Virus record (IMG/VR): IMGVR_UViG_3300045988_141150 | DNA length: 40,350 nt | Origin: a virus | Reading direction: 5' to 3' (one strand) | Shown: in pieces, positions 1,337 to 38,755 of the stretch | Layout of the letters: each line of letters opens with the position of its first letter | Position numbering within the stretch: the stretch's first letter is position 1 | Notes under the pieces: model-generated | Database searches by the model: none | What the model saw: only the letters and a program-made list of their open reading frames with translations | What the model was told of the DNA's origin: nothing | Program-made: the position numbers and the translations under genes

Positions 1337-1365
1337 TTGACTTTTTATAAAAAATATGTTATAAT
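1337..1365 (+). promoter_or_regulatory. Copy of the family-A repeated promoter motif: TTGACT, a 17-nt spacer, TATAAT.
   Basis: It matches the recurrent motif TTGAyTTTTTATAAAAAATA-TATAAT. Confidence 0.5.
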
Positions 1366-1475
1366 GATAAAAAAAGACTTTTTTAAGCCCGCGTAGGATC
1401 ATATGCCTTTATGATTAATTAAAAATTGCTTCGCCCTTACATTGTTTCACGCGTATGTTTTCATTCAAAAAAATC

Positions 1476-1504
1476 TTGACATTTTTAAAAAAAAAGTATA
1501 TAAT
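1476..1504 (+). promoter_or_regulatory. Family-A promoter: TTGACA, a 17-nt spacer, TATAAT. It drives the gene at 1536.
   Basis: Consensus hexamers, followed by ATATATAGAAAATAAGAAAAGAGG. Confidence 0.6.
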
Positions 1505-1535
1505 ATATATAGAAAATAAGAAAAGAGGTATTCAT

Positions 1536-1913
1536 ATGGATATGAATGATATTGTTGCTCGTCTGAAAAATGGTGAGGACGCTCAGACTATTGCGGACGA
1601 GATGGAAAATGCTCTGAATGATGCGATTAAGCAGGTGGAGAAGGAAACCAAGCAGGCCGATCGGAAGACCGCGCTCGCGCAAGAAATCGCCGATCGGATT
1701 AACGAGTATGCCGCTCTTAATGGCCACAAGGATTCCGCGTTGACCGCGTCCGATGTGGAGACTATCTTTGCTGAGGTTTACGGTCTTATGAACGGGGTCA
1801 ACGATCTTATTGACGCGCTTTTCCCCAAGAGCACACAGGTAAAGGTTAAGAAGGTCAAGAAAACTGATGATGATGTAATTGCCGAGTTTTTGAACACTTT
1901 CATTAATAAGTGA
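1536..1913 (+). CDS. Hypothetical protein of 125 aa.
   Basis: In frame within track ORF 1455..1913. ATG follows an AAGAGG RBS. A terminator lies downstream. Confidence 0.6.
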   Translation: MDMNDIVARLKNGEDAQTIADEMENALNDAIKQVEKETKQADRKTALAQEIADRINEYAALNGHKDSALTASDVETIFAEVYGLMNGVNDLIDALFPKSTQVKVKKVKKTDDDVIAEFLNTFINK

Positions 1914-1985
1914 ACAATGTGTCGGGTGAGATATTTTTCATCCTAAGAATTGACAATTTCACCAAGAATTGCCTAATATGAAAGA

Positions 1986-2016
1986 AGAGAGACTAAAAAA
2001 AGTCTCTCTTTTTTTT
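1986..2016 (+). terminator. Rho-independent terminator.
   Basis: Hairpin AGAGAGACT-N6-AGTCTCTCT followed by a run of eight T. Confidence 0.7.
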
Positions 2017-2257
2017 AGGTTCGGAGATCGGAGACGGGAAAAAGTGGTTGGTGGTTTAGTAAAACCGATCGGCACCACACTCTCGCAATTTTCGCTATTT
2101 TAGCAATTTCTACAATTATTCCACGTCGTCCGAATTATCCAAACCTTTAATTACTATCCAAAAGCGAATCAACCAATATAGGTCTATTAACGGTCTCTTC
2201 CAGCGTTCCATAGGCAATATCCAACAGCCACACCAATTAAAAACCAAATAATACCAC

Positions 2258-2662
2258 TCATACAAGCAACTCCTCCAACTTTGTCTTAAATACACTATCA
2301 AGAATGTCATCAGCAAGCGTTCTCTTACTGAGATCCACATCTTCTGATCCAGAAGCAACCCCATTAACGAGGGCGCTTGTGTCCGAAGTCGTCTGCGGCT
2401 GCTTCTCAAACGCGGGCTTCACATATCTATATTCATTCTCGATATATTCTATCTTACCTTGCTCAGTAATTCGACCAAGAACCTTACCATTAAAAACCAA
2501 CTTATTACAGTCATCCCAAATAAGATATGCGCCTTGCGTATTCTCCCTATTAAAAAACTCTTTCTTAGTAGTAGCAATTACATTCCAATTGCGGAAAACG
2601 CCTACCTTTTCTCCATTATTCTTTTTCAGTTCTTCAGTTGTAAATTTCATTTCAGTTTTCAA
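2258..2662 (-). CDS. Hypothetical protein of 134 aa.
   Basis: The ORF is in the track and has no in-frame TAG. Confidence 0.5.
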   Translation of the reverse strand: MKTEMKFTTEELKKNNGEKVGVFRNWNVIATTKKEFFNRENTQGAYLIWDDCNKLVFNGKVLGRITEQGKIEYIENEYRYVKPAFEKQPQTTSDTSALVNGVASGSEDVDLSKRTLADDILDSVFKTKLEELLV

Positions 2663-3139
2663 ATCCTTACTTTCATTTCATTTTTTGAATAGTTCCCCGA
2701 GACAAATACCCCTGCTTTACGCAGAAATAACCTACCCCGGTATTCCATTTTAAAATTATATTTCTTTCTTTTATTATTTATATTATAATATATTATTTAT
2801 TATAAATCAAATAAACTCCTAAAGAAATGGATTTTCTTCTATTGATTCAGGTCTATCCTCATATTTCATTTTAATTGGTTTTGTACTATCTGGAACAACA
2901 AAATAAATAGTATTATCTTTCATATATAAATCAGGTTTTATCATATTTGTTTTATCTATCATCTTATCAAACTATTCTTGCGTTCCTCTTACAAATCTTA
3001 CTATTGAAGGATTGCCTTTTCCGCCCCTTACTTCTTCATAATTATATTCCATTACTTTTTACTCCTTTTGCTCTCATTACTGCCCCTGAATTACCCAGCC
3101 GATATATATTAAATATTATCTATTATATATATATTAATA

Positions 3140-3382
3140 GGAACTTTTTGTTCCGAAAATATAGGCAATTCGGAACTAACGGTTCCAAACATAAGGGGCA
3201 TTTTGGAACTAACGGTTCCGCAGTCCCTAATAATTCATCACGTTTTAAATGAATGGAACTAACGGTTCCGAATTTAATGTTAAAATTCAAATTTGTCTTC
3301 TTTCGGAACTTTTTGTTCCACTTTACTATTATTAATTATCTATTTTTGAATAACAACCTATCCCTTCGGAACTTTTTGTTCC
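3140..3382. repeat. Array of six palindromes GGAAC-N4/5-GTTCC. GGAACTTTTTGTTCC occurs three times and GGAACTAACGGTTCC three times.
   Basis: Exact copies sit at 3140, 3172, 3205, 3255, 3305 and 3368. They lie in a 600-bp non-coding gap between two minus-strand genes. Confidence 0.8.
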
Positions 3383-3711
3383 AGAAAATCATTACAATTA
3401 TCATAAAAATCATATTTTCCTTCCGCGGTTTCGACTAAATAGTTATTATTCTTTAAATCATTTATACCAGCATCAATAGCCTTGCGGACTGCCCTTGCTT
3501 CACTCGCCTTTGAATAATCTTTTCCTAACCAATTGGCATAAGCGGTCGGATTCATAGTCCAAACAAAATTATTAGTATTACCAGCTAAATATAAATATAA
3601 TCTTAAACCATTCAATGTTAAACTCCCAGTAGCCTAACCCAACGTAGGAGTGTTTATTGAAGTAAAATTACCACTCTATAAAACTTCTTTATGAATCTTA
3701 AATAGGCTCAT
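3358..3711 (-). CDS. Hypothetical protein of 117 codons. It is readable only with TAG as sense, with two in-frame TAG.
   Basis: It extends track ORF 3358..3615 upstream through two in-frame CTA (minus-strand TAG) codons to an ATG at 3709..3711. Confidence 0.45.
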
Positions 3712-4474: not shown

Positions 4475-4871
4475 TTTATAAGTCCTCCTCCTTTTCTTTT
4501 TAATTGTTCTATAATAAATAAAAATTTTTTTAATACTTTTAATTGCGTTTGCCCACAAATTTTTAAATATTTTTCTAAAAGTAATAATTTGTCTTACATT
4601 TTAATACAAAATGGTAAAAATTTTCTACAATTTTAACTAACGCGGTTTTCCCGTCTAATGTTCCTTCTATCCTAAGCATAGCGATCTCTAATATCTACAT
4701 AAGCGACTATGAAAAATTGCCTACAATTTTTACCTATTTTAATTACATTTAATATGTTTGCCCAAGCGCTTTTATTTTTTATTTAATTCAAAAAACATTT
4801 ATTGATTTTTATTAAATTTTAATATATAATATAAATATAAAATAAAGAAAAACTATTAAAGGTGATAAAAA

Positions 4872-5069
4872 ATGCTAGCTAAACTTATTGATAATCAAGG
4901 TCAAACTCATATCATCAATACGACCCATATTCATTCAATTTCCGTAAAGAATTCTGGGTCGGATAAACTTGTGATGGTTTTTTGGGACAATGAAACAAAA
5001 ACCGCGTATTATGTAAAACCCACTGAGTATAGCACTTTTATCAATTCTATTTTTAAGGAGGATAAGTAA
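4872..5069 (+). CDS. Hypothetical protein of 65 aa.
   Basis: The ORF is in the track. An AAAGGTGAT RBS lies upstream, and a family-A-like promoter lies at about 4795 to 4850. Confidence 0.55.
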   Translation: MLAKLIDNQGQTHIINTTHIHSISVKNSGSDKLVMVFWDNETKTAYYVKPTEYSTFINSIFKEDK

Positions 5070-5070
5070 T

Positions 5071-5409
5071 ATGTCTGTTGATTTTGGTTCTAAGCTCGTG
5101 TGTGGCTACAAAGTCTCTAAGAACCTTCTTGAGAACTATGATAATATGGCTGAGGCTATTGAACAGCTTACCGAAGAAGGTTATTGGCATCGCGCAAGCT
5201 GCTATGATAACGACGAAAATCCTATCTTCGGCTATCTTCTCGGTAAGTCTTCCGCGGGCGAGGCCGTCCGCATCGACAACATCTTCATCGCTCCGCAGGA
5301 GTATTATCGCCTTAACGACACAATGAAGGAAGCTTACGCAAAGTTTCTCAAAATCCCCATCGAAAGCCTTGATGATCCCGAGATTTTTCTAATCTCTACA
5401 ATTTCTTAA
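5071..5409 (+). CDS. Hypothetical protein of 112 aa.
   Basis: The ORF is in the track. An AAGGAGGA RBS lies upstream. It is tightly packed with its neighbours. Confidence 0.6.
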   Translation: MSVDFGSKLVCGYKVSKNLLENYDNMAEAIEQLTEEGYWHRASCYDNDENPIFGYLLGKSSAGEAVRIDNIFIAPQEYYRLNDTMKEAYAKFLKIPIESLDDPEIFLISTIS

Positions 5410-5425
5410 AGAAAGGAAAATAAAT

Positions 5426-5680
5426 ATGAAACAATGCCCTGTTTATTATGAAGCACGCTATTGGGACGATTCTGATAAAATGGATAGACTTACGTGCGGT
5501 TTTATCTTCGCGGAAACCCTCGCAGAAGCCGGCCGTTGGGCAGAAGAATATTTCGAAGATCTTATCACTATCGCATTTACCCCTCTTGACGAGGGCCCTT
5601 TGCGCGTCAATCATGATCTTGCTAACAAGATTCTAAAATTTGACGGCGAAGATGCTCCATATTCTGCTAAAGTGCTATGA
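5426..5680 (+). CDS. Hypothetical protein of 84 aa.
   Basis: The ORF is in the track, with an AAAGGAAA RBS. Confidence 0.55.
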   Translation: MKQCPVYYEARYWDDSDKMDRLTCGFIFAETLAEAGRWAEEYFEDLITIAFTPLDEGPLRVNHDLANKILKFDGEDAPYSAKVL

Positions 5681-6120
5681 TGACTTTCCTATGTAAGAAT
5701 TGCGCTTACCTTTTGTCTAATGGTGCTTGTCCAATAGCAGGATATTCACCCGACCCCAATCAACCCGTTTGTAATAGCTTTAGCGACACTAAGTATACTT
5801 GTAAAGTTTGTCATAACCCAATTTTCCATAAGCAAATGGTTATTGACGACAAAGGAAATACTTATTGCGATAAATGTTTCGCAAGACTTAGCACATGCGC
5901 TAATTGTGAACAAAATGTGAACTGCGCATTTAATGATTCTCCCGACACGCCGAAAATGGTCCAAAAGCGAGAAATCGTTGGAAATATGCAAGCCGTCACG
6001 AATGTCCGTAATCCCGACATTGTCGAAAAGACGTGTAAGAAAGGTTGTTCTTGTTTTAACGAAGAAAATGGCTGTATGAGAGATTTCAATTGTTGCGATA
6101 AACTTAACCCTATTCTTTAA
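5677..6120 (+). CDS. Cys-rich zinc-ribbon protein of 147 aa.
   Basis: It has multiple CxxC pairs, such as CKNCAY, CKVCHNP, CDKC and CANC. Its start overlaps the upstream stop. Confidence 0.55.
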   Translation: MMTFLCKNCAYLLSNGACPIAGYSPDPNQPVCNSFSDTKYTCKVCHNPIFHKQMVIDDKGNTYCDKCFARLSTCANCEQNVNCAFNDSPDTPKMVQKREIVGNMQAVTNVRNPDIVEKTCKKGCSCFNEENGCMRDFNCCDKLNPIL

Positions 6121-6134
6121 AGGAGTTTTTAAAT

Positions 6135-6734
6135 ATGTTTATCTTCTTCTTGAAAACGCTGATGGGCGGATTTGTTCTACCGGCCTTAATTATTTTTCTA
6201 ATTTTCGCCATTCATTCTGCTTATCGTAGTTATAGGTATTATAGCACTCTTTCCGATCCTAAGGCCAAGCATTTCCGCAATTGGTCTCATCGCGACCGCG
6301 TTGATATTCTCCGTCAAATTATTCCTGCCTTTTGGATCGGCGTTTGTCTTTACCTCGCGGTAGGCATGTTTGGCGGAGTTATGATGTCTTCGGCTGTTGA
6401 TGACTATTCTAAGTATGATTATACGATTACGGAAGCCCAAGAGCTAACAAGTATAGATAACGATGGCAATATCTATACTTACCGTGCCTTTGAAGGTGAG
6501 ACTGTTTATTACACTTATCTTACACTCAGCACTGATGGCATTATGAGCACTGAGACCCATCCCGTGAATGACACAGTAATTGTTTACTCTAATCAGGTTC
6601 CGCACATTGAAAAGCGTCTCCCACGTTATGGCGATTGGAGAGAGTGGTTCTTTGTCTGCTCTAAGTCAACGCGAGCTTACCTTTATATTCCAGAAGGAAC
6701 AGATATAGCGAAAGATTATATTGTGGAGAAATAA
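6135..6734 (+). CDS. Membrane protein of 199 aa.
   Basis: The N-terminus is hydrophobic and a second TM segment is present. The ORF is in the track. Confidence 0.55.
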   Translation: MFIFFLKTLMGGFVLPALIIFLIFAIHSAYRSYRYYSTLSDPKAKHFRNWSHRDRVDILRQIIPAFWIGVCLYLAVGMFGGVMMSSAVDDYSKYDYTITEAQELTSIDNDGNIYTYRAFEGETVYYTYLTLSTDGIMSTETHPVNDTVIVYSNQVPHIEKRLPRYGDWREWFFVCSKSTRAYLYIPEGTDIAKDYIVEK

Positions 6735-6735
6735 A

Positions 6736-7005
6736 ATGAACAAAGGTGATTTAATTTATTTAAAAATGTCTAACGGCGACAGTGTTTTCTTCAACGTAAA
6801 TGAAATCGTTGCGGTTCTTGTTTCTCATATTGCCAAGGATAATTCAGATGATGACAGTATTTCTACTGAAACTTTTGAAACAAAACTTGACTTTTATATG
6901 AATGATAAATCTCATTATGAATATGTCTTTGATGATAGGTATTCTAATGGTACCGCAATTCTAAAACAACTTAAAAATTTTGTTTCTGAGGAGGCATTCA
7001 AATGA
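6736..7005 (+). CDS. Hypothetical protein of 89 aa.
   Basis: ATG lies in the frame of track ORF 6721..7005, with a GGAGAAATAAA RBS. Confidence 0.55.
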   Translation: MNKGDLIYLKMSNGDSVFFNVNEIVAVLVSHIAKDNSDDDSISTETFETKLDFYMNDKSHYEYVFDDRYSNGTAILKQLKNFVSEEAFK

Positions 7006-7247
7006 TTGTAATTTTACACAACTTCCGCGGTTCTAAGTATCTTATTAATACTAACAATATTAACGCCGTCGAAATTCGACCCGTGAATTCTGAAACTTAT
7101 GCAAAAGAAATCGCGGAAGCAGGCGGTGGTCCGCTCTCGTTTATTTACATTGATTGGCAATTCAATGCTTCAACAAGCATTCTCGTATCTTCTGAAACTG
7201 CCGAAGAGTTTCTCAATCTTTTTGAAGGCGCGATTGAAATCTTTTAA
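7002..7247 (+). CDS. Hypothetical protein of 81 aa.
   Basis: The ORF is in the track and overlaps the upstream stop. Confidence 0.55.
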   Translation: MIVILHNFRGSKYLINTNNINAVEIRPVNSETYAKEIAEAGGGPLSFIYIDWQFNASTSILVSSETAEEFLNLFEGAIEIF

Positions 7248-7305
7248 TTTCTAAATATATTATAACAAAAATTTTGGGTAAAATCAATTAATGGAGGAAT
7301 AATAT

Positions 7306-7521
7306 ATGAAGCATATGCCTGTCTTATTCATTTATGACGCGTTCTGTGATGAGATTTACTGCGCCACAAATATAAGTGGATCTGACGCTCTCGAAATCGC
7401 TATGTCCGCGATCGAAGAGAATGTTGAGAAACGATTCCATTGTCGTAAATTTGATACAAGACTTTACAAAGATGCATTGGAAGATATGATTATTTATTAT
7501 AATTATGCTCCCGTTCTCTAA
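7306..7521 (+). CDS. Hypothetical protein of 71 aa.
   Basis: The ORF is in the track, with a GGAGGAATAATAT RBS. Confidence 0.55.
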   Translation: MKHMPVLFIYDAFCDEIYCATNISGSDALEIAMSAIEENVEKRFHCRKFDTRLYKDALEDMIIYYNYAPVL

Positions 7522-7530
7522 TTTTTAAAA

Positions 7531-7559
7531 GGATTTGCGCAAACCGCAAATCCTTTTTT
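7531..7559 (+). terminator. Rho-independent terminator.
   Basis: Hairpin GGATTTGCG-N5-CGCAAATCC followed by a run of six T. Confidence 0.7.
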
Positions 7560-7610
7560 GATTTTTTATAAAAAATAATATATAATATATATATAAAGTA
7601 AAGAAAGGAA
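7558..7610 (+). promoter_or_regulatory. Family-A promoter: TTGATT, a 17-nt spacer, TATAAT, then ...AAAGTAAAGAAAGG.
   Basis: It matches the consensus motif. Confidence 0.6.
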
Positions 7611-7702: not shown

Positions 7703-7942
7703 TTGAATGCATCTGAGGCCGATATGCAGGAAATGTTTATGGAGTATTGTCGAGATATGGTCGATGATAGTCTTATGGAGCATCAGTTCGAGGTAATTCA
7801 GAAAGACTCTGATAATGATTGGTATCTTTATCACGGCGAGATGACTGGTGATTGGACGAAGAGATTCTCTTCTTATCTCGATATGATGAATAACGTCGCC
7901 GATGATGTTTTTATTGATTTCGTTGATGCGATTGAAATGTAA
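7703..7942 (+). CDS. Hypothetical acidic protein of about 79 aa. The start is uncertain.
   Basis: The ORF is in the track. A 28-codon ORF at 7620..7706 sits just after the promoter, so the true start may be the internal ATG near 7727. Confidence 0.4.
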   Translation: MNASEADMQEMFMEYCRDMVDDSLMEHQFEVIQKDSDNDWYLYHGEMTGDWTKRFSSYLDMMNNVADDVFIDFVDAIEM

Positions 7943-7953
7943 GGAGAATAATT

Positions 7954-8235
7954 ATGAAAGAAATTACTTGTTATAAAATTGAAGATGGAGTGATTGGTAA
8001 GTCTTGGACCTTCGCCAATATTTCTGAAGCAGAAATACAAGAGTTATATCTCGCTTTCATTGAAGGCGCAATCGAAGAAGATATTATGGAAACTCAGCGA
8101 ATCGAATACTTCGATCTCCCTCTTCCTAAGCCCGATTGGTGGCGAGTAGAAGAGGATTATCAGAAAGAAGTTGATAGACTTCGTCTTATGGATAGCGAGT
8201 TCTATATGCATAAATTTAATGCTTATACGTTTTAA
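7954..8235 (+). CDS. Hypothetical protein of 93 aa.
   Basis: The ORF is in the track, with an AAGGAGAATAAT RBS. Confidence 0.55.
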   Translation: MKEITCYKIEDGVIGKSWTFANISEAEIQELYLAFIEGAIEEDIMETQRIEYFDLPLPKPDWWRVEEDYQKEVDRLRLMDSEFYMHKFNAYTF

Positions 8236-8246
8236 GGAGAATATAA

Positions 8247-8981
8247 ATGATTCCTGGACTTTATGAAATCTTTAATACGCGCTGGGGTGGTCAGACGGTC
8301 TGGGTATCCTCTGATTGGCATTTTGGCGATTCAGATTTGCGGATTGGCCACCCCAACCGCATTTCTGATGACGATCTTGTAAAACTTTTAAATAGCAAAG
8401 CAGGTCGGAAAGACACACTCATTTGTCTCGGTGATGTAGGTGATATCTCTTATGTGCGGAAACTGCGCGCCGGTTATAAGGTTCTCATCAAGGGCAACCA
8501 CGATGCTGGCTCTGAAAACTATAAGCGCAAAATTGTCAAGAAGAGATTCTCTATGAATCACTATCGAAAGGACGAAGCGCTTATGGAAATGAAGCGTCTT
8601 TATCCTGATTGTAAGTATTTTATTGATTCGGGATTTAATTTCTGCACTCCCTTTGAATATTGGGAGATTACCGCGGATAATGGTCTTTTCGACGAAGTAT
8701 ATGATGGCGTGCTCCTTATTGGTGAGAAACTTATGCTTTCTCACGAACCAATTAAGCAGGACTGGGCTCTCGATCTTCACGGCCATGACCACAATCATAA
8801 AGAGACGGACATCTATCACAAGAATGTTTGTATAGATGTGTTTGGCCCCGCCCCTTTAAACTTAAATCAGTTCATGAAAAATGGCCCGACTGCGAAGATC
8901 GAGAGCGTCCATAGAAAGACGATTGATACCGCGACCAAGAGAAAGCAGAAGCGAGGAGGTAAAAAGATATGGGAGAAATGA
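8247..8981 (+). CDS. Calcineurin-like metallophosphoesterase, a Ser/Thr phosphatase-like protein of 244 aa.
   Basis: The motifs DWHFG, LGDVGD, GNHD and GHDH occur in the canonical order. Confidence 0.7.
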   Translation: MIPGLYEIFNTRWGGQTVWVSSDWHFGDSDLRIGHPNRISDDDLVKLLNSKAGRKDTLICLGDVGDISYVRKLRAGYKVLIKGNHDAGSENYKRKIVKKRFSMNHYRKDEALMEMKRLYPDCKYFIDSGFNFCTPFEYWEITADNGLFDEVYDGVLLIGEKLMLSHEPIKQDWALDLHGHDHNHKETDIYHKNVCIDVFGPAPLNLNQFMKNGPTAKIESVHRKTIDTATKRKQKRGGKKIWEK

Positions 8982-9139
8982 TTATTATGCTATTTATCAT
9001 ATTAGTATTTTTCGGCTTTATGTATATGGATCTACTGAATGATGATACTATGCCTCTCAATGAGAAGTATTATTATTGCGGTATGGGCATGTTGCTTTGC
9101 CTGTTTGCCGGTTTTATTCAGTCAGTCTTTTATGTTTAA
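8969..9139 (+). CDS. Small membrane protein of 56 aa.
   Basis: ATG follows a GAGGAGG RBS. The protein is hydrophobic. Confidence 0.45.
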   Translation: MGEMIIMLFIILVFFGFMYMDLLNDDTMPLNEKYYYCGMGMLLCLFAGFIQSVFYV

Positions 9140-9215
9140 AATAATAATTCTTTGTTTTTGCGCTCTTGGCATTTTATCCGTTTTGTTCGATGACTTAGAT
9201 TAAGGAGAAGGATAT

Positions 9216-9422: not shown

Positions 9423-9435
9423 GGAGAAGATAGTT

Positions 9436-9840: not shown

Positions 9841-9851
9841 GGAGAATAAAA

Positions 9852-10442: not shown

Positions 10443-10449
10443 ATAAAAT

Positions 10450-11595: not shown

Positions 11596-11618
11596 TATAT
11601 AGAAAGTTAAGAAAGGGA

Positions 11619-11801: not shown

Positions 11802-11814
11802 TCAATAAATATTA

Positions 11815-29157: not shown

Positions 29158-31216
29158 AAATTATCAAGGGATTCCTCCTTATACTAATCCAATATGGAAA
29201 TCGGTTTATGATGGTGTTAGTTTAGAAATGCATATTGTAGATCATTGTAATCTTAATTGCGCAGGATGTAATCATTTTTCCCCTTTAGCAGAACCTTGGT
29301 ATATTGATTTAGATGATTTCCGTGATCAGATTACTTTTGCTTATAAAAAAATTCCAAATATAAAACTTTTTATGATTTTAGGTGGAGAACCTACTTTGCA
29401 TCCAAAATTATTTGAAATATGTTAGATTGCTAGAGAAGTTTTCCCAAAAAATAAAGTAGAAATTAAAATATTAAGCAATGGGTGTCATTTACAAGATGCT
29501 TTTAAACATGAGAAAGAATATCAAGATATGGGAGTAATATTTGATATTACTACTTATGGGAAATATACTGATCATAAAGCGGTAGAATATTTAGACAGTC
29601 ATGGTTTAGGTTTTAATCATAATTCAAGATTATTTATGCGACAATAGCTTGTAAATGAAGCAGGAACTACTGATATAAATGAAGTATATTTTCATAAATG
29701 CCCGCATTAGTTACCTTGTTTTACTTTAAAAAATTATAAAATTTATATATGTCCTTTTTCTGCACATTTGGATATTTATAGAAAAAAATATAATGTAAAT
29801 ATTCCAGAAGATGAAAGTGATTATTTGCGATTAGAGGATATAAATAATTTAGATGATTTACATAATTTTATTTTTAAGCCTAAAAATATTTGTAGATATT
29901 GCGATGGAACTATGTCTAAAGCCTCTTGGATTTGGCACAAATATTATGATACAAAATCGGAATTTATAGTTCCAATGGAAGATGCTTATTTTAGAGATTA
30001 TGATTTTTATTTAAAATTAGTTAATGATAAAGAAAATTTTTTAGAAAATTATTAGTTATTTAAAGAAAACAGATGCCCAATTGAATTTAGATATAATACT
30101 TATTATTTAAAAAAATGTTTTACTCGTTTTATTGATGGAAAAATGGATATTATAATACCTTATTATAATATGAATGATTAGCAAATTATTAATTTGTATA
30201 ATAATTTATCTACCCAAACAATTATAAAAGATTGTTGTGTATATTTTATTAGCGACCATTCTTTCTATGATAAAAAACTTATTGAGATATTTGATGAAGC
30301 GAGTTTTCCTTGTTTCTTTTTTAAGAATTTAAAACGAAAAGGACCAGGTCTAACTCGTAATTTAGGATTAGAATATTCTTTTAATAAATATGTGTTATTT
30401 TGGGATTCTGATGATTTATTCCCAAATGATAATGTTTTAGAAATTTTATATAATTCAATAAAACATAATGAGAAAGATTTTGGAGTATTTAAAATAGCTA
30501 ATACTGATAAATCAGTTGAAAAGATTAATTTAATTCTTAAAAGAGATTTTCTTAATAAAAATAATATAAAATATTCAAAATTTTTCTTTGGAGAAGACAG
30601 TATTTTCTTGGATAGATGTGATATTTATGGTGAATCTTATGAGTTAGAAGACTAGAATTTAGGTCTTTATATAACTTAGTTAGAAGACAATCCTAATTGT
30701 TTATCTCATTCTAATTCTAACATGGTAATTACAGCATATATTAATAAAATAATTGTATTTTTTGCTAATTTTATTGATGTTTTGAAATTAGAAAATATTG
30801 ATGAAAATCGTAAACAAAGTACTTTAAGACGGAATCTTTATAGAATTATTAATGAAATAAAATCAATAAGTGATTTAGATTCTTCTTTTTATGGATATGA
30901 AAATAATTATTTTTTAGAAAAAATTCTTCTTTTAATTTATTATATTTTATATACTATGTATAATTTATATAGTAACAAAGAAGATTTTAATAATATTCCC
31001 AATTTGTGTAATTTAGATAAACAAATTATAGAAGATATCAAAAGTTAGAAAATTAAATTTAGTCTTCTAAGAGGAGAATGTATAACTAATTTTGATGATA
31101 TTAAAAATGAAATTTATCCATTGTTAAATTATCTTAACAATGAATTATGCTATGTGCCTACTTATGAATGGTTTCTGAATTATTTAGATGGAAAAGGAGA
31201 GAGTATTTATGATTGA
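29138..31216 (+). CDS. Continuous 692-codon frame with 9 in-frame TAG and no TAA or TGA. It has an N-terminal radical SAM domain (CNLNCAGCNH, GGEPTLHP and a C-terminal CRYCDG) and a central GT2 glycosyltransferase domain (IIIPYYN...GPGLTRNLG...FWDSDD). It is one fusion protein or two to three cistrons.
   Basis: Track ORFs 29120..29425, 29768..30055, 30194..30655 and 30722..31048 all share one frame and are separated only by TAG. The frame ends at a TGA at 31214. Confidence 0.5.
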
Positions 31217-31391
31217 AACTTATCAAGAATATAAAGAAAAAGTTTATTTTCTTCTAAATAATTTTTTAGATTTTACTAAAGGAGATAAACCTTATTTATT
31301 TAATATGCCTTCAAAATTAGGCAATCTTCCTAATCTAAATGAATATTTATATTTTTGTTTTAATAAATCTGATGCAGGAGAAAATAAATGA
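31209..31391 (+). CDS. Small protein of 60 aa.
   Basis: ATG follows an AAAGGAGAGAG RBS, in the frame of track ORF 31188..31391. It ends in TGA. Confidence 0.45.
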   Translation: MIETYQEYKEKVYFLLNNFLDFTKGDKPYLFNMPSKLGNLPNLNEYLYFCFNKSDAGENK

Positions 31392-31930
31392 GGTTTACTG
31401 ATTATCATTTTGGATAGGCAGAGTCTGACTTTTGGACTTTATTAAAAGAATTTCTATTAAGGTTTGATCCCAATAGTATTTATGATTTTTGGATTTTATT
31501 TATTTATTTTTAGTTAGGTATTATTAGAAAAGATAGATTTATCATTTATTAGGTATAGTATATTTTAAAAGAAAAAATAGATTTTGAAGAAATTAATGAA
31601 GTAAATTTTAATACAATTATTCCAATAGAAAAGATAAATTTATCTAGTTTAAAAGATTGTATTTGGATAAGCTATTGGATTTGTTAGTATAATTATTAGA
31701 ATGATGAAAATTTAATTTTAATTTATAGTGAGAAAATATTTAATAATCTTACTAATATTTTTGAGCCGGATATTGTTATAGATATTCCAATAGTGTAGTA
31801 GAGTAATAAAATATGTAAAATGTGCGGTTTAGAGTCTAAATCTAATGGATAGAATATACCATTTTTTAAAATAAATGATAATAAATATTTATGTCCTAAT
31901 TGTTATTATTTATTAAAATTAAATGAATAA
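31388..31930 (+). CDS. Hypothetical protein of 180 codons with a C-terminal CxxC...CxxC zinc ribbon. It has about 10 in-frame TAG.
   Basis: ATG overlaps the upstream TGA. The frame is free of TAA and TGA for 543 nt in a region of about 25% GC. It is invisible to the standard-code track. Confidence 0.4.
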
Positions 31931-32023
31931 TTATTAAAACCTACTTTTATAGTAGGTTTTAATTGATTTTTAATAAAAAATAATGTATTATAATTATAAG
32001 ATAAATGAAAAGGGTGTGTTTAT

Positions 32024-33808
32024 GTGAATAATTATAATCAACATTATAAAGAAATAAGTCCTATTGAGACTGTTAATAATATTAAAAATTTTTTAGAAGG
32101 ACGCGGATTTACTTGTGTTGAGGAAGCTTTACGACAAGAACAATCAACTACTTGGAGTCTTGTATTAAATCTTGAATACAAAGGACATTTTGTGCTAAAA
32201 ACTTATGGCAAAGGTGTTACAAAAGAATTCGCCAGAGCTTCTGGTTATGCGGAAATGTATGAGCGTTTTTGTAATGGAATGCACTATCTTTGTAATTCTT
32301 TTCTTTGTGCGGAAAAAATTGAATTAAATAGAAAAAATTATGGTTATTCTTTGTTTAAAAATGAAAAGCCTTTAAGTTATAAAGAGGCACTTGGAGGAGA
32401 AGATACTCTTTTATATAAACTTTTTGATCGTTTGAATAAGAAAGATAATGGTTTATTAGAGGATTATTTTAAAACTATTTATAATAATGAATTTTTTGGA
32501 ATACCATTTAAAGGAGTCAACATTAATAAAACTTTATATATGGATCCTCGTCTTCTTCAACGTTATCATGGTAGTTCGGGAATGGCAGCCGGCAATACTT
32601 TTAATGAAGCCTTAAATCAAGGTTTATCTGAAATTTTCGAGCATTATGTTTTAAGTAATTTTTATATTGATATTGATAATAAAGATTTTTATTTTTATGA
32701 TACAGATAGTATTAAAGATGAAAAATTAAAAAATATTATTAGTGCGATTAAATCTCATAATAATAACTTTTATATTATTGATATGTCAAGAACTTATAAT
32801 GTGCCTGTTATGGTAGCAATTTTGATTAATAAATATAGTGGTACTGTAGCTATTAATTTTGGTGCTTTCCCTGTATTTGAAATTGCAGTTGAGCGAGTTT
32901 GTACTGAAATGTATCAAAATTGTTTTTCTTTTGATACAAGAAAAACTTCAGTTGTATCTCCGTATTATTCTTTAGATAAAGAAGATATGGTTATAGATGG
33001 CGGTTCTTGTATTACAAATCTTAATACTTTTCCTGAGAGTTTATTCTTGAATAAGAAATTTGTAAATACTATTAATAAAGATGTATTTTTATCTTATACT
33101 GATAAAAATTACTCTAATGATGAAATCTTAGAGCATAATAAAAAGATTGCTACTAATATTGGAGCAGATATTTATTGTGCTGATGTATCTTTAATTGATA
33201 CCGTATCTGCGATTAGTATTTATGTTGATAATCTTGACGGGCTATGGAAATCTTTCTTTGATAGATGCCAAGGAGTTAAAGAAACTGGAGAAGCAATTAC
33301 TATAACTAAAAATAAACATTTGGCCATTAAAAACTATTTAAATAATAAAGATAAAGTATATGATGTAATTAAATATTGTCTTGATTATTATAATATTACT
33401 TTTGACAAAATTGTAGATAGATTTTGTGGTTTACTTACTCATGGAGATCAATTAGTTGCTTATAATAATAAAAATATATTATTAACACCTAATGAGATGT
33501 TTGTTAAAAACCTTTATATGGATGCAACAGGATATTTATTAGAAGATGAAGGATTTTCTTTAGATATTTCAGTTAGTTGTTTTTATACTTATTATAAAAA
33601 ATATTTAACTTTATTAGCATATGTTCACAGTAGAAAATATACTAAAGAAGATATGATTAAAATTTTCAAAGAATTTGATTATACTTTTACTGATGAAGAT
33701 TTTAAACATATTACGGATAGAAAATATTTAGTAGAAAAATGTATTTTAGAGCCTATGTATAATACATTTAGAAGCAATGATTTTAAAGAAATGATTAAAA
33801 ATTATTAA
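32024..33808 (+). CDS. YcaO-domain protein of 594 aa.
   Basis: HGSSGMAAGNTFNEALNQGLSEIFEHY matches the YcaO ATP-binding signature, which has the form xGSNGLAsGNTxxEAxxQGLxExxER. The ORF is in the track and has no TAG. Confidence 0.65.
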   Translation: MNNYNQHYKEISPIETVNNIKNFLEGRGFTCVEEALRQEQSTTWSLVLNLEYKGHFVLKTYGKGVTKEFARASGYAEMYERFCNGMHYLCNSFLCAEKIELNRKNYGYSLFKNEKPLSYKEALGGEDTLLYKLFDRLNKKDNGLLEDYFKTIYNNEFFGIPFKGVNINKTLYMDPRLLQRYHGSSGMAAGNTFNEALNQGLSEIFEHYVLSNFYIDIDNKDFYFYDTDSIKDEKLKNIISAIKSHNNNFYIIDMSRTYNVPVMVAILINKYSGTVAINFGAFPVFEIAVERVCTEMYQNCFSFDTRKTSVVSPYYSLDKEDMVIDGGSCITNLNTFPESLFLNKKFVNTINKDVFLSYTDKNYSNDEILEHNKKIATNIGADIYCADVSLIDTVSAISIYVDNLDGLWKSFFDRCQGVKETGEAITITKNKHLAIKNYLNNKDKVYDVIKYCLDYYNITFDKIVDRFCGLLTHGDQLVAYNNKNILLTPNEMFVKNLYMDATGYLLEDEGFSLDISVSCFYTYYKKYLTLLAYVHSRKYTKEDMIKIFKEFDYTFTDEDFKHITDRKYLVEKCILEPMYNTFRSNDFKEMIKNY

Positions 33809-33819
33809 TAGGAGATTAT

Positions 33820-34698
33820 ATGAATATTAATTTTAATTGCCCTGAATTTTACTATGGGATTGAAGTATATGATAAACTTTTTGAATTACAAGAAATTGCT
33901 CCAGAAGCATTTTATCCAGAAGCCAAGGTAAAGTATATATATGGCTGTCTTCCTAATATGATTTGGAATGGTGGCGGATTTATGGATGGACGTCCAGAGC
34001 ATAATATTGATTATCTTTGCGCAATGCGTGATTTTTATGAAAAAAATAATATTATTTTACGTTTTACATTGACAAATCCGCTTTTAGAAGAAACTGACGT
34101 TTATGATAGATACTGTAATGAAATGTTAAAACTTTTTGATAATGGTATTAATGAAATTATTGTTAATTCTCCTATTCTTGAGCGCTATCTTCGAGACAAA
34201 TTTCCTAATTATAAGTTGACTAAAAGTATTACGGCAGCAAAAGAAGATTATGATTTTGTAAAAGCTCTTGATAATTATGAAAGCATTGTCCTTCCTCGTC
34301 GTCACAATAGAAATTGGGAACTTCTTGATTCTATTCCAAAAGATAAAAGAGAGAAAATTGAAATTCTTGCTGATGAAAGTTGTCCTATTGATTGTCCTCG
34401 TCTTTATACTCATTACAATGTTTTTGCAAATTTTAGTTTGTTTAAAAAAATTGATGACTCTCAGCGTAATTGTACTACTATGAAAAATAATGGCGCAGTT
34501 TTTCCTGAAATTGATAATAAAGATATGATTTATATGGATGAAATTTTAAATACTTATTTACCAAAAGGATATAATAATTTTAAGATTTCTGGGCGCAATT
34601 GCGCTGACCATTGTGCAAAATCTATTACTCCGTATTTTTTTAAACCAGAATATCAATTAGAAGGTTTTTGCGAGTTGCTCGATATTGGTTTGAGTTGA
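33820..34698 (+). CDS. Hypothetical protein of 292 aa, possibly a partner of the YcaO protein.
   Basis: The ORF is in the track. It begins 12 nt after the YcaO stop and has several Cys pairs. Confidence 0.5.
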   Translation: MNINFNCPEFYYGIEVYDKLFELQEIAPEAFYPEAKVKYIYGCLPNMIWNGGGFMDGRPEHNIDYLCAMRDFYEKNNIILRFTLTNPLLEETDVYDRYCNEMLKLFDNGINEIIVNSPILERYLRDKFPNYKLTKSITAAKEDYDFVKALDNYESIVLPRRHNRNWELLDSIPKDKREKIEILADESCPIDCPRLYTHYNVFANFSLFKKIDDSQRNCTTMKNNGAVFPEIDNKDMIYMDEILNTYLPKGYNNFKISGRNCADHCAKSITPYFFKPEYQLEGFCELLDIGLS

Positions 34699-34702
34699 TT
34701 TT

Positions 34703-34741
34703 AACTCCTTACTATTTTATTTAGTAAGGAGTTTTTTTTTT
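34703..34741 (+). terminator. Rho-independent terminator.
   Basis: Hairpin AACTCCTTACTA-N7-TAGTAAGGAGTT followed by a run of ten T. Confidence 0.75.
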
Positions 34742-34822
34742 ATTTAACCAGATTAAATTAATGACTTCTTATAAATTTTTAAATTTTATAGAAATAATAA
34801 AATTTATAAGGAGGTCATTTAA

Positions 34823-35377
34823 ATGGCAATTCCAAAAGCAATAGAACATATGCGTAGTGGAAGTGGCGGTTTAGAAATTATTCCAATTATTTCTACTGAT
34901 GGATTAACTTACACAGGAACCGCAAAATCTATTAAAGAATATAAAGACGGAATGATTATTGGTCTTATTCCAAATATGAATAATATTGCGACAAATCCAA
35001 TTACTAATATAACGATAAATATAAATAATTTAGGAGCATTAAAATTAACTCAATATTATATTAAAAAAGAACATTCTAATAATGGATTAGGGTGTTGGCA
35101 CAGCAATACTGCTGTAGAAGCCAATTTTTTATATAAAGATGAAGCTTTTATTGGATAGATACAATTAGGGTCATCTAGTGGTGATTATATTTTACCTATT
35201 AATCCAGGATTAGACTTAGCTTAGATTACTAATGGTTCTATTGGGTCTAATTTGTCTGTCACTGCTAATTCTTCTTATTTAAACAATAATATTTTAAGAA
35301 ATATTAAAGTATCTACTTCTGCTCCCACCGCTTCAGACGGAAATGTTGGAGATATTTGGATTTAGTATTTCACTTAA
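34823..35377 (+). CDS. Putative virion or tail protein of 184 codons with three in-frame TAG.
   Basis: Track ORF 34823..35158 continues in frame through TAG to a TAA at 35375. An AAGGAGGTCATTTAA RBS lies upstream. Confidence 0.45.
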
Positions 35378-35393
35378 TAGAGGAGGAATTTAA

Positions 35394-36809
35394 ATGCCAA
35401 ATACTTATAATCCTTCTGGAACTTCTATAACAGATTATTCTTCTATTAAATTTATTCCAGGAGATATTATTAATAGTAGCTATTCAGGAGCGGTAAATCC
35501 AGTAAAACTTCCAACGGGAAATTATCAATTAGAATGTTGGGGTGGCTATGGTGGAATTGGTTATTCTGGTTCTTTAACTTCATCAACAACAACTTCATGG
35601 ATATATATAGGAACTAATAATGCAACTAGTTATTTTAGCATTAATAATGATTCAAATTATTATTTCCGTCAAGATGGAAATGACTGGATAGCTACAAATG
35701 GCGGTATACATTCAAGTACTGCAACCACTACATTAACTTGTACTTCTGCGGGAACTTACAAGATTTATTATTATTATCAGACTGAAGTAAATTGTGATAA
35801 AGTTACTTTAACTGTTGGAGGATCAACGGTTTTAAATGCCGTATCGGGGTCATAGTCTTTAACTGAAGCTGGTAGCTATTCTTTATCATCAGGGTCTACT
35901 ATTGTAATGACTTATTCTAAAGATAGTTCAGTAAATGCCGACAATGAAGAAGTTTATTTTTAGATTTAGAAATAGGAGAGTAATACTACTTATACTCCCA
36001 CAAGTTCAAAAAATAGTTATTGGGGTGGAGCAGGAGGATATTCTACAGGAATTCTTTCTTTATCAGCCCCTACTGTTATCTATTTGTATACAGGAGGTTA
36101 GGGTAATTATTCAAGTAATAGTGAAAAAGGAAAAGTAGTTAGTGGCGGATTTAACGGAGGAGGTAGCTCTAGAATCAGATGGTATACTTCTGCTTATACA
36201 TCAGGAGGTGGCGGAGGTGGCGCTTCCGATGTTCGTATAGGCCAAGACTCTCTTTACGCCCGTGTAATTGTTGCTGGCGGTGGTGGCGGTGGCGCAGGAG
36301 AAAGCAATTCTTCTATTAAATAGGGCGGTGGATTAACTGGTAATTCTGCTGTTGAAGAATATAAAGCTACGTAGACTAAAGCCGGAACAAATGGATCTTT
36401 TGGCCAAGGGGCTGATGCTAGTGGATCTGCCAATTATAATTATGGTCCCGGTGGTGGTGGTGGAGGCTGGTACGGTGGTGGTGCTTCTACTAATGTTAGT
36501 GACAGTTCCGCCGATTATAGAACTTATAATGGCGGAGGTTCTGGCTATGTATATACTTCATCAACTGCCTCTAATTATCCTTCTGGCTGTTTGTTAAATA
36601 GTAATTATTATTTAACAAATGCTTCTACTGCTATAGGATATAGTAAAACCAATCCAGGAGGGCAACATGGGTATATTCGTATTACAGTATTATCTCCATT
36701 AAATGTAAAAATTAATCCTAACACCTATGCTCCTATTAAAGCAATATATACAAAAATAGATAACACAACTTGGAAAGGAGGAATGACTACATGGCAACCT
36801 ATGACTTAA
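35394..36809 (+). CDS. Glycine-rich tail-fibre-like protein of 471 codons with 7 in-frame TAG.
   Basis: Track ORFs 35394..35855, 36352..., and 36591..36809 share one frame. The N-terminus contains LPTGNYQLECWGGYGG. The C-terminus contains SGYVYTSSTASNYPSGCLLNS...GYIRITV. Confidence 0.55.
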
Positions 36810-38128
36810 CTTCTTCGATTCCTTCTTCTTCTTCTTTAAGAACGGGGGATATATTAAATTGTCCTTATAGTGGATCTGCTAAATCAATTACTCTTCCAAA
36901 AGGCACTTATAAATTAGAATGTTGGGGAGCACAAGGTGGAAATGCAGGTTATTATAGTTATGTTCATTCAACCCCTAATGGAGGAAAAGGTGGATACTCT
37001 ACTGGTGTAATCACTTTATCTTCAAGTGTTATAGTATATCTTTATACCGGAGGACAAGGAGGAAGTACTATCGGGAATAAGCTAGACTAGAATTCAGTAG
37101 CTACAGCACCTGGTGGATTTAATGGAGGTGGCATCGCTAATCAAATGGGAGCCGCTGGTGGTGGTGGAGCTTCTGATATTCGCATAGGCCAAGATTCTCT
37201 CTATGCTCGTATAATCGTCGCTGGAGGCGGTGGTGGTGGAGGCAATGCGAGTAGTTCTACTTTATTATCTTGTGGCGGAAATGGTGGAGGAACTACTGGT
37301 GGAACTCCACCTAATTAGCACAATAATAGAACCCCAGGAAAAGGAGGAACTCAAACTGGAATAACAGCTAGTCGTTCATCATCAATTTCTGCGGGATTTG
37401 GTAATGGAGCTGGTGGTACGGGAGAAAATCTTCGTGGAGCCGGTGGCGGTGGCTGGTATGGTGGAACTATGGGTGAAAATTCAACTGGCGGAGGTGGAGG
37501 TTCTGGTTATGTATATACTTCCTCAACTGCTTCTAATTATCCATCTGGTTGCTTATTGAATAGCACTCATTATCTTAGTTCTGCTTCTACAATAGCTGGC
37601 GACACTTCATTCACTTCTCCAACAGGGTCATCTGAAACAGGTCATAGCGGAAACGGGTATATAAGAATTACTATTTAGTCTATTGTTAACTGGGCTTATT
37701 CTACTGTATCAATTCCTGCTCCTACTTATAGTAAATAGGATACTTCTTCTTGGACTTTATCTCCGAGTGCTTGCAGGTATTTTTCTTTTACCCCTACTAT
37801 TTCAGGAGATTTTATTGTTTATTCCAATTCTTCAATAGATACTTTTGGCTATTTAACATCAAATATTGTTTCTCTTAATAGTAGTGGATAGCCTTCTTCT
37901 AATATTTTAGCTAGTGATGATGATTAGGCAAAAAAATATGGTGGATCTGGAAGTAATTTTGGTATTTGTTATAAAGTTACTGCTGGAACTACTTATTATA
38001 TATATGTTAAGCCTTATCGTGATAGTACAGCAAATAGTTCAGTATATTTAACTTATTATATGGCTCATCCTGACAGTAGAGTATATGTAAAAACAGATAG
38101 TACAACATGGAAATTAATAACCAATTAA
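36791..38128 (+). CDS. Glycine-rich tail-fibre-like protein of 445 codons with about 8 in-frame TAG. It is a paralogue of the gene at 35394..36809.
   Basis: It shares LPKGTYKLECWGAQGG, SDIRIGQDSLYARIIVAGGGGGG and SGYVYTSSTASNYPSGCLLNS...GNGYIRITI with the upstream gene. It ends at a TAA at 38126. Confidence 0.55.
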
Positions 38129-38136
38129 AAAATTTT

Positions 38137-38165
38137 TTGACATTTTAAAAAAAATAATATATAAT
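38137..38165 (+). promoter_or_regulatory. Family-A promoter: TTGACA, a 17-nt spacer, TATAAT.
   Basis: It matches the motif. It drives the tRNA-Trp region. Confidence 0.6.
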
Positions 38166-38299
38166 ATATTTATAAAATAAAGAAAGACCTTTACAGCAAA
38201 AATAACTTCCAGAATAAACTAATGATTAAGTCATAATCCTTTAAGATTAAAATAATGGTTCAACTCCATTTTCCGGACAAAGTTAAGGTCTTGTTTTTA

Positions 38300-38374
38300 T
38301 AGGCGTCTGGTGTAACGGTAGCATGCGGGTCTCCAAAACCTTGCGGTGTGGGTTCGAATCCTACGACGCCTGCC
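38300..38374 (+). tRNA. tRNA-Trp with anticodon CCA.
   Basis: Acceptor stem AGGCGTC pairs with GACGCCT over 7 bp. The T arm is GTGGG-TTCGAAT-CCTAC. The anticodon loop is CTCCAAA. The discriminator is G and CCA is encoded. Confidence 0.7.
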
Positions 38375-38396
38375 ATTTTAGACAAAAAGAACTTTT

Positions 38397-38425
38397 TTGA
38401 TTTTATTAAAAATATATAATATAAT
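38397..38425 (+). promoter_or_regulatory. Family-A promoter.
   Basis: TTGATT, a 17-nt spacer, TATAAT. Confidence 0.6.
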
Positions 38426-38459
38426 ATATATAGAAAGTTGAGAAAGGAGAAAATAAATA

Positions 38460-38642
38460 ATGAATATTGAAGTTGGTAATTCTTATTGTTTTGTCCCTTA
38501 TCGTGGTCGTTGTTATCGTAGACAGTATCTTAAATGTACTGTTATTCGAGTATTAAATTATCAGATTGAAGTCCTTGATGAGCATGGTGAAAAATGGCTT
38601 CTTTCAGAAGATGATTTAATGCCAATTCAAAGACCTTATTGA
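38460..38642 (+). CDS. Small hypothetical protein of 60 aa.
   Basis: The ORF is in the track, with an AAAGGAGAAAAT RBS, and sits between two promoter copies. Confidence 0.45.
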   Translation: MNIEVGNSYCFVPYRGRCYRRQYLKCTVIRVLNYQIEVLDEHGEKWLLSEDDLMPIQRPY

Positions 38643-38667
38643 CATTTTATAAAAAATATTATATAAT
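38639..38667 (+). promoter_or_regulatory. Family-A promoter: TTGACA, a 17-nt spacer, TATAAT.
   Basis: It matches the motif. Confidence 0.6.
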
Positions 38668-38726
38668 ATTTATATAAGATGAGGAAAGAAAAAAGAAAAT
38701 AAAAAACTTTGGGTAAAAGAGAAAAG

Positions 38727-38755
38727 TTGATTTTTTAAAAAAAATATAATATAAT
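38727..38755 (+). promoter_or_regulatory. Family-A promoter: TTGATT, a 17-nt spacer, TATAAT.
   Basis: It matches the motif. It drives the interrupted tRNA. Confidence 0.6.

Follow-up and report, generated by a model that had tools for sequence, protein, structure and literature searches.

Why would a phage conserve a promoter so far beyond the two hexamers that define it? The question is raised by a short element that recurs along a 40,350-nucleotide (nt) stretch of viral DNA, IMG/VR virus record IMGVR_UViG_3300045988_141150, which we refer to as the window. In this element, the cassette, a TTGAyw −35 hexamer, a 17-nt T/A-rich spacer and a TATAAT −10 hexamer are followed by a block with the sequence ATaTATAgAAAGTtAAGAAAGG. 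An earlier note on the window had listed 15 copies, described them as a universal early or middle transcription signal joined to a ribosome-binding site (RBS), and proposed that the downstream block has a second function, such as a 5′ untranslated region (UTR) element, a regulator-binding site or a processing signal. We conclude that the cassette is probably an early promoter of the sigma-A/sigma-70 type combined with a short leader and RBS, often overlapped by a terminator, and that it has been kept by selection throughout a clade of TAG-recoded gut phages, in which it is occasionally a site of recombination.

A copy of the cassette is present at each of the 15 positions listed, with the promoter half alone at 1337. 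A 50-nt degenerate pattern for the whole cassette matches the window 14 times with up to three mismatches, always on the + strand, whereas 100 dinucleotide-preserving shuffles, the control for all pattern counts, yield no match; a 28-nt core, TATAATATATATAGAAAGTTAAGAAAGG, matches 6 times at the same stringency and again never in the shuffles. The 17-nt spacer and an exact TATAAT occur in 16 of 16 window copies, and the −35 hexamer is TTGAyw or TTTATT in all of them. These copies align without gaps at a mean column identity of 73%. Measured against the base composition of the window, the −35 contributes 8.0 bits, the spacer 18.0 bits, the −10 9.5 bits and the following 25 nt 23.3 bits, bearing out the claim that conservation extends well beyond the hexamers. 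All copies lie on the + strand and face + strand open reading frames (ORFs) or tRNAs in the same orientation, an anatomy that supports the description of the cassette as a promoter fused to an RBS immediately 5′ of operons. A minus-strand promoter that also appeared in our scans (TTAACT-N16/17-TATTAT/TATATT) was rejected as incidental to the A/T richness of the cassette.

The same unit is found in relatives of the phage. An exact-match scan of IMG/VR with a slightly degenerate version of the 28-mer retrieves at least 118 loci from about 60 contigs of 60–198 kb, mostly 100–198 kb. Searching the window together with 1.03 Mb of these loci using a 60-nt profile hidden Markov model (HMM) built from the window copies gives 368 matches, 287 of them unique, so that the search in related phages that the earlier note had suggested finds the motif hundreds of times in related viral contigs. 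On one relative's 164-kb contig there are 20 HMM matches in the 40 kb sampled. Conservation across the family is sharply bounded, beginning at TTGA (−23 relative to the start of the −10) and ending at about +27, and 358 of 363 matches keep the same −35/−10 register. Because the retrieval pattern could bias this result, we repeated the search with a promoter-only HMM and left out every copy that this pattern matches; 17 bits remain in the downstream block. Some related lineages have TRTGn directly 5′ of TATAAT (…atatgtTATAAT), which we take to be the Gram-positive −16 element. The experimentally mapped early promoters of a Kayvirus also have TRTGn (PMC7698491).

Selection acts on the unit as a whole. 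Across eight orthologous cassettes shared by the window and relative L093, the 52-nt core is 94% identical, against 78% in the upstream and 76% in the downstream flank. Several loci whose proteins are only 28–55% identical to their window orthologues hold many near-consensus cassettes. The contrast between core and flanks, together with persistence over such distances, indicates purifying selection on the entire unit rather than recent amplification.

What, then, is the conserved downstream block? Counted from the −10, the position of the first plausible start codon has a sharp peak at 32–33 nt and falls within 29–35 nt in 133 of 223 cases, and an ATG lies 27–38 nt after the −10 in 178 of 281 unique family copies. 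Transcription would start at an A or G about 7–8 nt after the −10; taking this usual start, the leader is about 25 nt long. Its composition is 57% A, 25% G, 16% T and 2% C (82% purine), and it has essentially no folding potential, with a median of −1.95 kcal/mol over the first 45 nt. Within it, AGAAAGGA can pair over 8 bp with a CCUCCUUUCU-type 3′ end of 16S rRNA (the anti-Shine–Dalgarno sequence; −10.3 kcal/mol). Operon-internal genes differ from the cassette in using AAGGAG or GGAGG at 7–9 nt from the start codon, where the cassette spacing is longer. A short purine-rich leader with a strong Shine–Dalgarno (SD) sequence is also a feature of the T5 early promoter PN25.

We divided copies selected on the promoter alone by whether an ATG is present at +27 to +38. 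The SD segment carries 8.8 bits in copies with the ATG and 5.6 in those without, and the first 14 nt after the −10 (ATaTATAgAAAgTt) carry 14.9 and 11.7 bits, respectively. Thus the first ~14 nt are conserved regardless of the ATG and the last ~10 nt, the SD, more so where an ATG follows, showing that the block has two parts. Judged from these sequences, part one is tied to transcription, comprising a discriminator rich in A and T, the start site and the bases transcribed first, and part two is the RBS; the whole is best described as a leader and RBS, not as a structured 5′ UTR element. In relative L026 the RBS half stands without a promoter ahead of a duplicated gene. The proposed second function of the block is therefore largely accounted for by a discriminator and start region plus an SD, and the part of the proposal that invoked a structured 5′ UTR element falls away. 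High sequence conservation of the block is what a riboswitch, an attenuator or an RNase processing signal would also show, and yet we regard such an element as the most improbable of the explanations considered: besides its composition and lack of folding potential, the leader matches no Rfam family at the gathering threshold across the window, where only tRNAs are found, or at E values up to 1 around 38.7–39.6 kb, and an SD at fixed spacing explains the part that is conserved. We accordingly rejected a structured-RNA leader as a candidate; a site at which a sequence-specific nuclease cuts single-stranded RNA is a remote possibility.

The window copies differ in how fully they realize this layout. 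At the left end, 1337–1365 is a partial copy with TTGACT, a cassette-type spacer ending in TGT, and TATAAT; it lacks the conserved downstream block and is missed by the 50-nt pattern. The next copy (1476–1525) is a full TTGACA variant driving a gene that starts at 1536, and a diverged copy at 4802–4851 heads an operon at 4872–7521. Full cassettes follow at 7558–7607 (ATG at 7620), 10480–10529 (with the TTTATT −35 variant), 11566–11615 (with an exact 28-nt core), 13252–13301, where the gene starts farther 3′ at 13326 with a GGAG of its own, 15803–15852, 15918–15967 (a TTGACA variant driving genes from 15980 to 18011) and 18067–18116. The cassette at 19734–19783 has a variant leader, ATTTATGTAAGGTAAAGGAAG, that extends over a long distance to an ATG at 19836. 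The TGA within its −35 (TTGATT) is the stop codon (19743–19745) of a 534-amino-acid (aa) gene at 18141–19745, so that the end of this gene and the next promoter overlap. Beyond it are a diverged relative at 21235–21284 (TTGACA, TGT-TATAAT; 20.3 bits) ahead of a peptidase gene at 21297–22403, and a weak extra copy at 31962. The right-hand group comprises 38137–38186, the full cassette 38397–38446 (ATG at 38460), 38639–38688, the first of a tandem pair, and 38727–38776. The word universal is wrong for this distribution, since no full copy lies between 21.3 and 38.1 kb and the genome also contains other classes of promoter.

The cassettes serve a distinctive set of genes. The first ORFs behind them have a median length of 85 aa and use the standard code; only 3 of 178 would need TAG read-through. 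Eight of nine cassette-led window genes tested against Pfam have no match and the ninth has a sub-threshold one. Units in the window are 1 to 8 genes long, and the region that bears them is full of insertions and deletions (indels) relative to genomes that are 75–95% identical. The claim that the cassette also drives tRNA genes is upheld: cassette 38137 precedes a tRNA-like gene (38208–38278) and tRNA-Trp (38301–38375), and cassette 38727 precedes tRNA-Asn(GTT) and a tRNA cluster beyond. Small standard-code ORFans and tRNA genes are the profile of early genes that depend on the host polymerase.

The gap in cassette distribution coincides with a change of genetic code. From 20.4 to 38.1 kb, genes have intact reading frames only when TAG is translated as a sense codon, and full cassettes are confined to the standard-code parts at 1.3–20 kb and 38.1–38.8 kb. 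Examples of such TAG-containing genes are those at 25379–26878, 26878–28281, 28576–29157 and 29120–31216, and the G+C content drops to 20–30% within 20439–38128. This places the phage among the TAG-reassigning gut phages that Borges et al. (10.1101/2021.08.26.457843) surveyed; their preprint contains no promoter analysis and hence no earlier description of the cassette motif. The window forms the first ~40 kb of a 190,948-bp human-gut metagenome scaffold (99.995% identity) that encodes the 534-aa protein. Among deposited phages, positions 16000–23900 have no megablast or blastn match and the 534-aa protein has no tblastn match. The cassette pattern also occurs on 19 stretches of contigs binned into metagenome-assembled genomes (MAGs), one of the samples having come from yak rumen; all of them carry a Bacillota label (Oscillospiraceae, Acutalibacteraceae, Lachnospiraceae, Eubacterium, Erysipelotrichia and 'Mollicutes'). 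A Bacillota host is likewise indicated by the promoter of sigma-A type, by the TRTG elements and by ribosome sites of the GGAGG type, and the host is probably a gut bacterium of this phylum.

From these features we infer which polymerase reads the cassette, where it starts, how strongly and when. Each copy would act as a self-contained early expression cassette read by the housekeeping RNA polymerase holoenzyme of the host, with TTGAyw, an A/T-only spacer of exactly 17 nt and a perfect TATAAT giving near-maximal promoter strength and the AT-rich 'ATATATA' acting as the discriminator. The transcript would open with an unstructured purine-rich leader of ~25 nt, in which AGAAAGGA would pair with the 3′ end of 16S rRNA at a fixed distance from the ATG.

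Could a phage enzyme read the cassette instead? The cassette might belong to an RNA polymerase that the phage encodes, or to a phage sigma factor for a middle class of genes, and only resemble the sigma-70 consensus. Conservation is tightest from the −10 to about +14, which is reminiscent of compact, uniform phage-polymerase promoters, and phage genomes of ~190 kb often encode transcription factors of their own. Set against this, the TTGA placed exactly 17 nt from a perfect TATAAT hardly varies (with G in 97% of hairpin-free copies), TRTG −16 elements occur in some lineages, the genes served are typical of early units transcribed by the host polymerase, and the window proteins scanned include no polymerase or sigma domain. 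The conserved −35 also argues against a T7-like single-subunit polymerase, the promoters of which are ~23-nt blocks from −17 to +6 without a −35. A phage enzyme is on balance improbable.

Transcription termination overlaps the host-type promoter at a subset of copies. In the window, hairpins at 7527–7557 (−16.3 kcal/mol), 10447–10480 (−23.9 kcal/mol), 13222–13250 (found by terminator scan and folding) and 18033–18068 (−21.2 kcal/mol) precede cassettes 7558, 10480, 13252 and 18067, respectively, all on the + strand and with stabilities of −14.9 to −23.9 kcal/mol; the hairpin before cassette 10480 abuts it, and the T-tract of the first, an intrinsic terminator, runs into the −35. A scan for a G+C stem-loop followed immediately by a T-run matches 7527–7557, 13222–13250 and 18033–18068. 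A fifth case is cassette 15918, which follows the hairpin of a truncated gene. Defining an abutting hairpin as one of −12 kcal/mol or stronger that ends within 8 nt of the −35, we find one at 103 of 313 unique family copies (33%) compared with 25 of 313 random positions (8%). The statement that most copies directly follow a terminator was thus an overestimate, given that 4 of 16 window copies stand directly after a strong hairpin and about a third do so across the family.

Hairpin-abutting copies have a T-shifted −35: G at position 3 falls to 66% from the 97% seen in TTGA of copies without a hairpin, and T occupies the last two positions in 81% and 95% of copies, as against 51% and 71%. Where a terminator is present, the −35 and early spacer thus double as its U-tract, at some cost to the −35. 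The spacer T-run is equally conserved with or without a hairpin, so it also has a reason of its own, and we rejected the idea that it is a terminator U-tract only. In the proposed mechanism, at about one-third of copies the hairpin of the preceding block would use the T-rich −35 and early spacer as its U-tract, and the overlapped terminator and promoter would insulate successive short operons of 1 to 8 genes.

Repeated units of this kind would offer portable homology for the loss or gain of gene blocks, and junctions of the expected form are present. In L002, window positions 7724–10530 are joined straight to 18067–25969 with a loss of 7.5 kb; the two parts overlap by 51 nt, the cassette itself, of which 10480 (left arm) and 18067 (right arm) carry identical copies, and several other metagenome contigs also break exactly at this cassette. 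L090, which is ~90% identical to the window, lacks 11619–13223 (1.6 kb) and has at the junction a single cassette with the left flank of 11566, the left arm, and the right half of 13252, the right arm. In a distant lineage, L084 has a single chimeric cassette in place of the two that flank a ~310-nt gene in L038 and L041. Cassettes are used in three of the six distinct direct-repeat deletions that we found, and these three are independent (L002, L090 and L084 versus L038/L041). At two to three sites, copy 18067 departs from its orthologues in L090, L093 and L116 and matches its paralogue 10480 instead, a sign of gene conversion. The uniformity of the cassette would be held by purifying selection acting over the full ~52 nt, together with some gene conversion from copy to copy.

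One close pair of cassettes has a different history. The interior of a ~95-aa gene served by cassette 15803 has been lost at 15853–15917 of the window and is kept in L090 (6490–6786) and L026 (12207–12822, as two tandem paralogues), and as a result cassettes 15803 and 15918 are only 115 nt apart. We therefore rejected a tandem promoter pair as a built-in design: this pair is the scar of an internal deletion in a small gene that is intact in both relatives. A role for cassettes as the main site of rearrangement was also rejected, because in 249 of 284 events both ends lie away from cassettes, and breakpoints are enriched at cassettes only 2.8-fold.

The 51-nt identity of copies 10480 and 18067, the sign of gene conversion and the presence of cassettes at some indel junctions are also what might be seen if the copies were a recently amplified selfish repeat, spread in the manner of a miniature inverted-repeat transposable element or by homing and uniform through recent descent. 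This is very improbable. Orthologues keep position-specific variants across genomes, copies are always co-directional with genes at a fixed distance from the ATG, and no terminal inverted repeats or target-site duplications were seen in them; with the core and flank contrast and the persistence of the consensus at 28–55% protein identity described above, this explanation is largely refuted.

The host-read promoter–RBS cassette has close counterparts in known phages. In the promoter-early stem-loop (PeSL) cassettes of the T4-type phages RB49/phi1, PST and nt-1 (Arbiol et al. 2010, PMC2839356; Comeau et al. 2014, PMC4122927), as here, a strong sigma-70-like early promoter is repeated in an A/T-rich context with a 3′ SD and start codon, often with an overlapping or adjacent terminator stem-loop. 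Both types are present in tens of copies per genome ahead of small ORFans in variable regions, and in both, recombination deletes or inserts gene modules and leaves one chimeric cassette. From its sequence, the cassette works like a PeSL and shows most of the sequence features by which PeSLs are recognized, except that its stem-loop is not constant and its carrier is apparently not T4-type: the phage is an unrelated, uncultured, TAG-recoded phage of ~190 kb that probably infects Bacillota. The stem-loop, where present, lies upstream with the −35 as its U-tract, whereas five positions are described for the PeSLs of RB49/phi1. The spacer and leader of the cassette are far more uniform than those of PeSLs, and its breakpoint enrichment is modest. 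Mini-circles, described for PeSLs, are not known for the cassette.

Other phages show parts of the same design. In the Staphylococcus Kayvirus vB_SauM-515A1, 58 early promoters have been mapped, with TTGACW, a 17-nt spacer, TRTGn and TATANT (PMC7698491), and the host-takeover genes of SPO1 are described as carrying the promoters and RBSs of highly expressed genes (PMC6873191, citing Stewart et al. 1998). Like the cassette phage, which probably infects Bacillota, these are large phages of that phylum (lytic in the case of Kayvirus and SPO1) with dozens of near-consensus sigma-A promoters, small early genes and strong RBSs. They differ in using the standard genetic code, and the conservation reported for them is mainly in recognized promoter elements; a near-invariant spacer and a fixed 25-nt leader maintained as one unit across a clade are not described for them. 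The early 'uber' promoters of T4 have a consensus beyond the −35, TGn, −10 and UP elements, which has been read as optimizing the capture of host polymerase (Hinton 2010, PMC2988021). They resemble the cassette in having extra consensus and differ in the positions involved and in their Proteobacteria hosts; T4 adds modification of the polymerase alpha subunit by Alt and ModA, and nothing comparable is known for the cassette phage. The cassette is thus a known phage design, here unusually uniform and conserved across a whole clade, and does not overturn current understanding. Its value lies in giving access, from sequence, to the transcription programme of ~100–200-kb TAG-reassigning phages of gut and rumen, an uncultured clade. 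It marks the genes that are probably expressed first, all of them standard-code and with tRNA genes belonging to the same set, and it suggests that recombination at promoter–terminator cassettes, known until now from T4-type phages, has a part in shaping an unrelated group of phages as well. The 52-nt unit is also a candidate for a compact, strong promoter–RBS part for use in gut Firmicutes.

The uniformity of the cassette stands out against a second class of promoters in the same genome. Eleven perfect TTGACA-N17-TATAAT promoters of this class occur in L124:1–9800, two of them within the window at 679–707 and 1186–1214 and nine more in the 8.5 kb to its left. The region has 43–46% G+C, the spacers are G+C-rich and poorly conserved, and several of the promoters have an inverted repeat that embraces the −35. 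Their leader consensus is aATACATCAAAtGAAAGGGG, with an ATG ~29–31 nt after the −10. TG-extended consensus promoters are also found at 20392, which is a perfect TTGACA-N17-TATAAT, and at 24041, both ahead of TAG-containing genes.

Several observations weigh against our interpretation of the cassette. The 18 bits of the spacer, a T-run followed by an A-run, and the ~12–15 bits in the first 14 discriminator and transcribed bases exceed the known needs of sigma-70, and promoter strength alone does not obviously account for this extra conservation. The second class of promoters is equally perfect without a conserved spacer, so conservation specific to the cassette may carry extra information. The stem-loop that defines PeSLs is present in only a third of copies. 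Cassettes contain 47 of 568 indel breakpoints while making up 3.0% of the sequence, and most rearrangements occur elsewhere. The junction in L002, taken from a short-read metagenome assembly, could be an artefact of assembling the reads, and the binning of phage contigs into MAGs is weak evidence on host identity.

One alternative is that the cassette is a host-polymerase promoter whose spacer, first ~14 nt, or both, are at the same time the operator or RNA target of a phage-encoded global switch. Candidates for such a switch would be a repressor or activator, or an RNA-binding protein or nuclease resembling RegA/RegB, by which the entire regulon is turned off or on at once, and the switch would make the cassettes a temporal class distinct from the neighbouring promoters with G+C-rich spacers. 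That two classes have equally perfect hexamers and only one has an invariant spacer is our main reason for keeping a class-specific regulator under consideration, and the second class has a different leader as well. The information content of the spacer and of the downstream 25 nt in the window is consistent with a binding site, as is the conservation of the first 14 nt in copies that lack an ATG. The cassette SD, AGAAAGGA, differs from the AAGGAG and GGAGG of internal genes, so that a factor could distinguish the messages, and the core formed by the T-run and A-run (TTTTTATAAAAA or TTTTTAAAAA) reads the same on both strands. Such symmetry follows trivially from a T-run next to an A-run, however, and the register of the core drifts between lineages, unlike that predicted for a dimeric operator. 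Moreover, use as a terminator U-tract explains part of the T-run, T4 early promoters show extra consensus without a dedicated operator (PMC2988021), and no candidate regulator was identified. We consider a global switch unlikely, while giving it more weight than the other alternatives.

In a more specific version, the cassettes would form a regulon with a switch of its own, in which a phage factor acting on the spacer or the first transcribed bases, as DNA or as leader RNA, shuts off or licenses all units. Because one cassette drives a tRNA with a CUUUAA loop, a possible suppressor, and another a tRNA cluster, the regulon could then time the change of genetic code that unlocks the TAG genes. 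This scenario is speculative and slightly less likely again than a switch in general.

The tRNA-like gene behind cassette 38137 is unusual in that its anticodon loop is one base short (CUUUAA). It scores 37.5 bits against the Rfam tRNA model, cannot be named by ARAGORN and is kept in L036, L048 and L105. If the loop is read as U33 followed by UUA, the product would be a possible stop-codon suppressor. Behind cassette 38727, tRNA-Asn(GTT) is split after the anticodon region by a ~470-nt insert, with its 5′ part at ~38795–38834 and its 3′ part at ~39306–39342. The insert carries an ORF (38867–39286) for a 139-aa PD-(D/E)XK endonuclease (Pfam PDDEXK_5, E = 1.4e-31), and the tRNA is uninterrupted in L036 and L105. 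A group I intron was considered and rejected, there being no Rfam match at E values up to 1.

Three of the second-class promoters lead straight into G+C-rich hairpins (GGCCGGCCG...CGGCCGG) with no ORF, at window positions 708–740 and 1215–1255 and at L124:4758–4795. These hairpins have no Rfam match and may encode small structured RNAs.

Compared with close relatives, the window has two insertions of its own that lie next to cassettes. One (9852–10442) holds a 196-aa gene with a PHROG match to a Sie-like superinfection-exclusion protein (phrog_8545, E = 1.1e-06) and begins after a stop codon and ends before the terminator that precedes cassette 10480. The other, at 34.7–38.1 kb, is a 3.4-kb block encoding Gly-rich repeat proteins that ends exactly at cassette 38137. 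Within the TAG-recoded region, the ORF at 24625–25347 contains ~10 tandem 33-nt units (24934–25278) encoding NYSSNNAQRSS-like 11-mers; radical-SAM-like genes lie 3′ of it, and a YcaO cyclodehydratase gene (32024–33808, E = 5e-28) and a U32-like peptidase gene are nearby. Together these genes may constitute a multi-core peptide-modification locus. At the right end of the window (40231–40350) are three perfect copies of a 41-nt tandem repeat, and relatives align up to position 40345.

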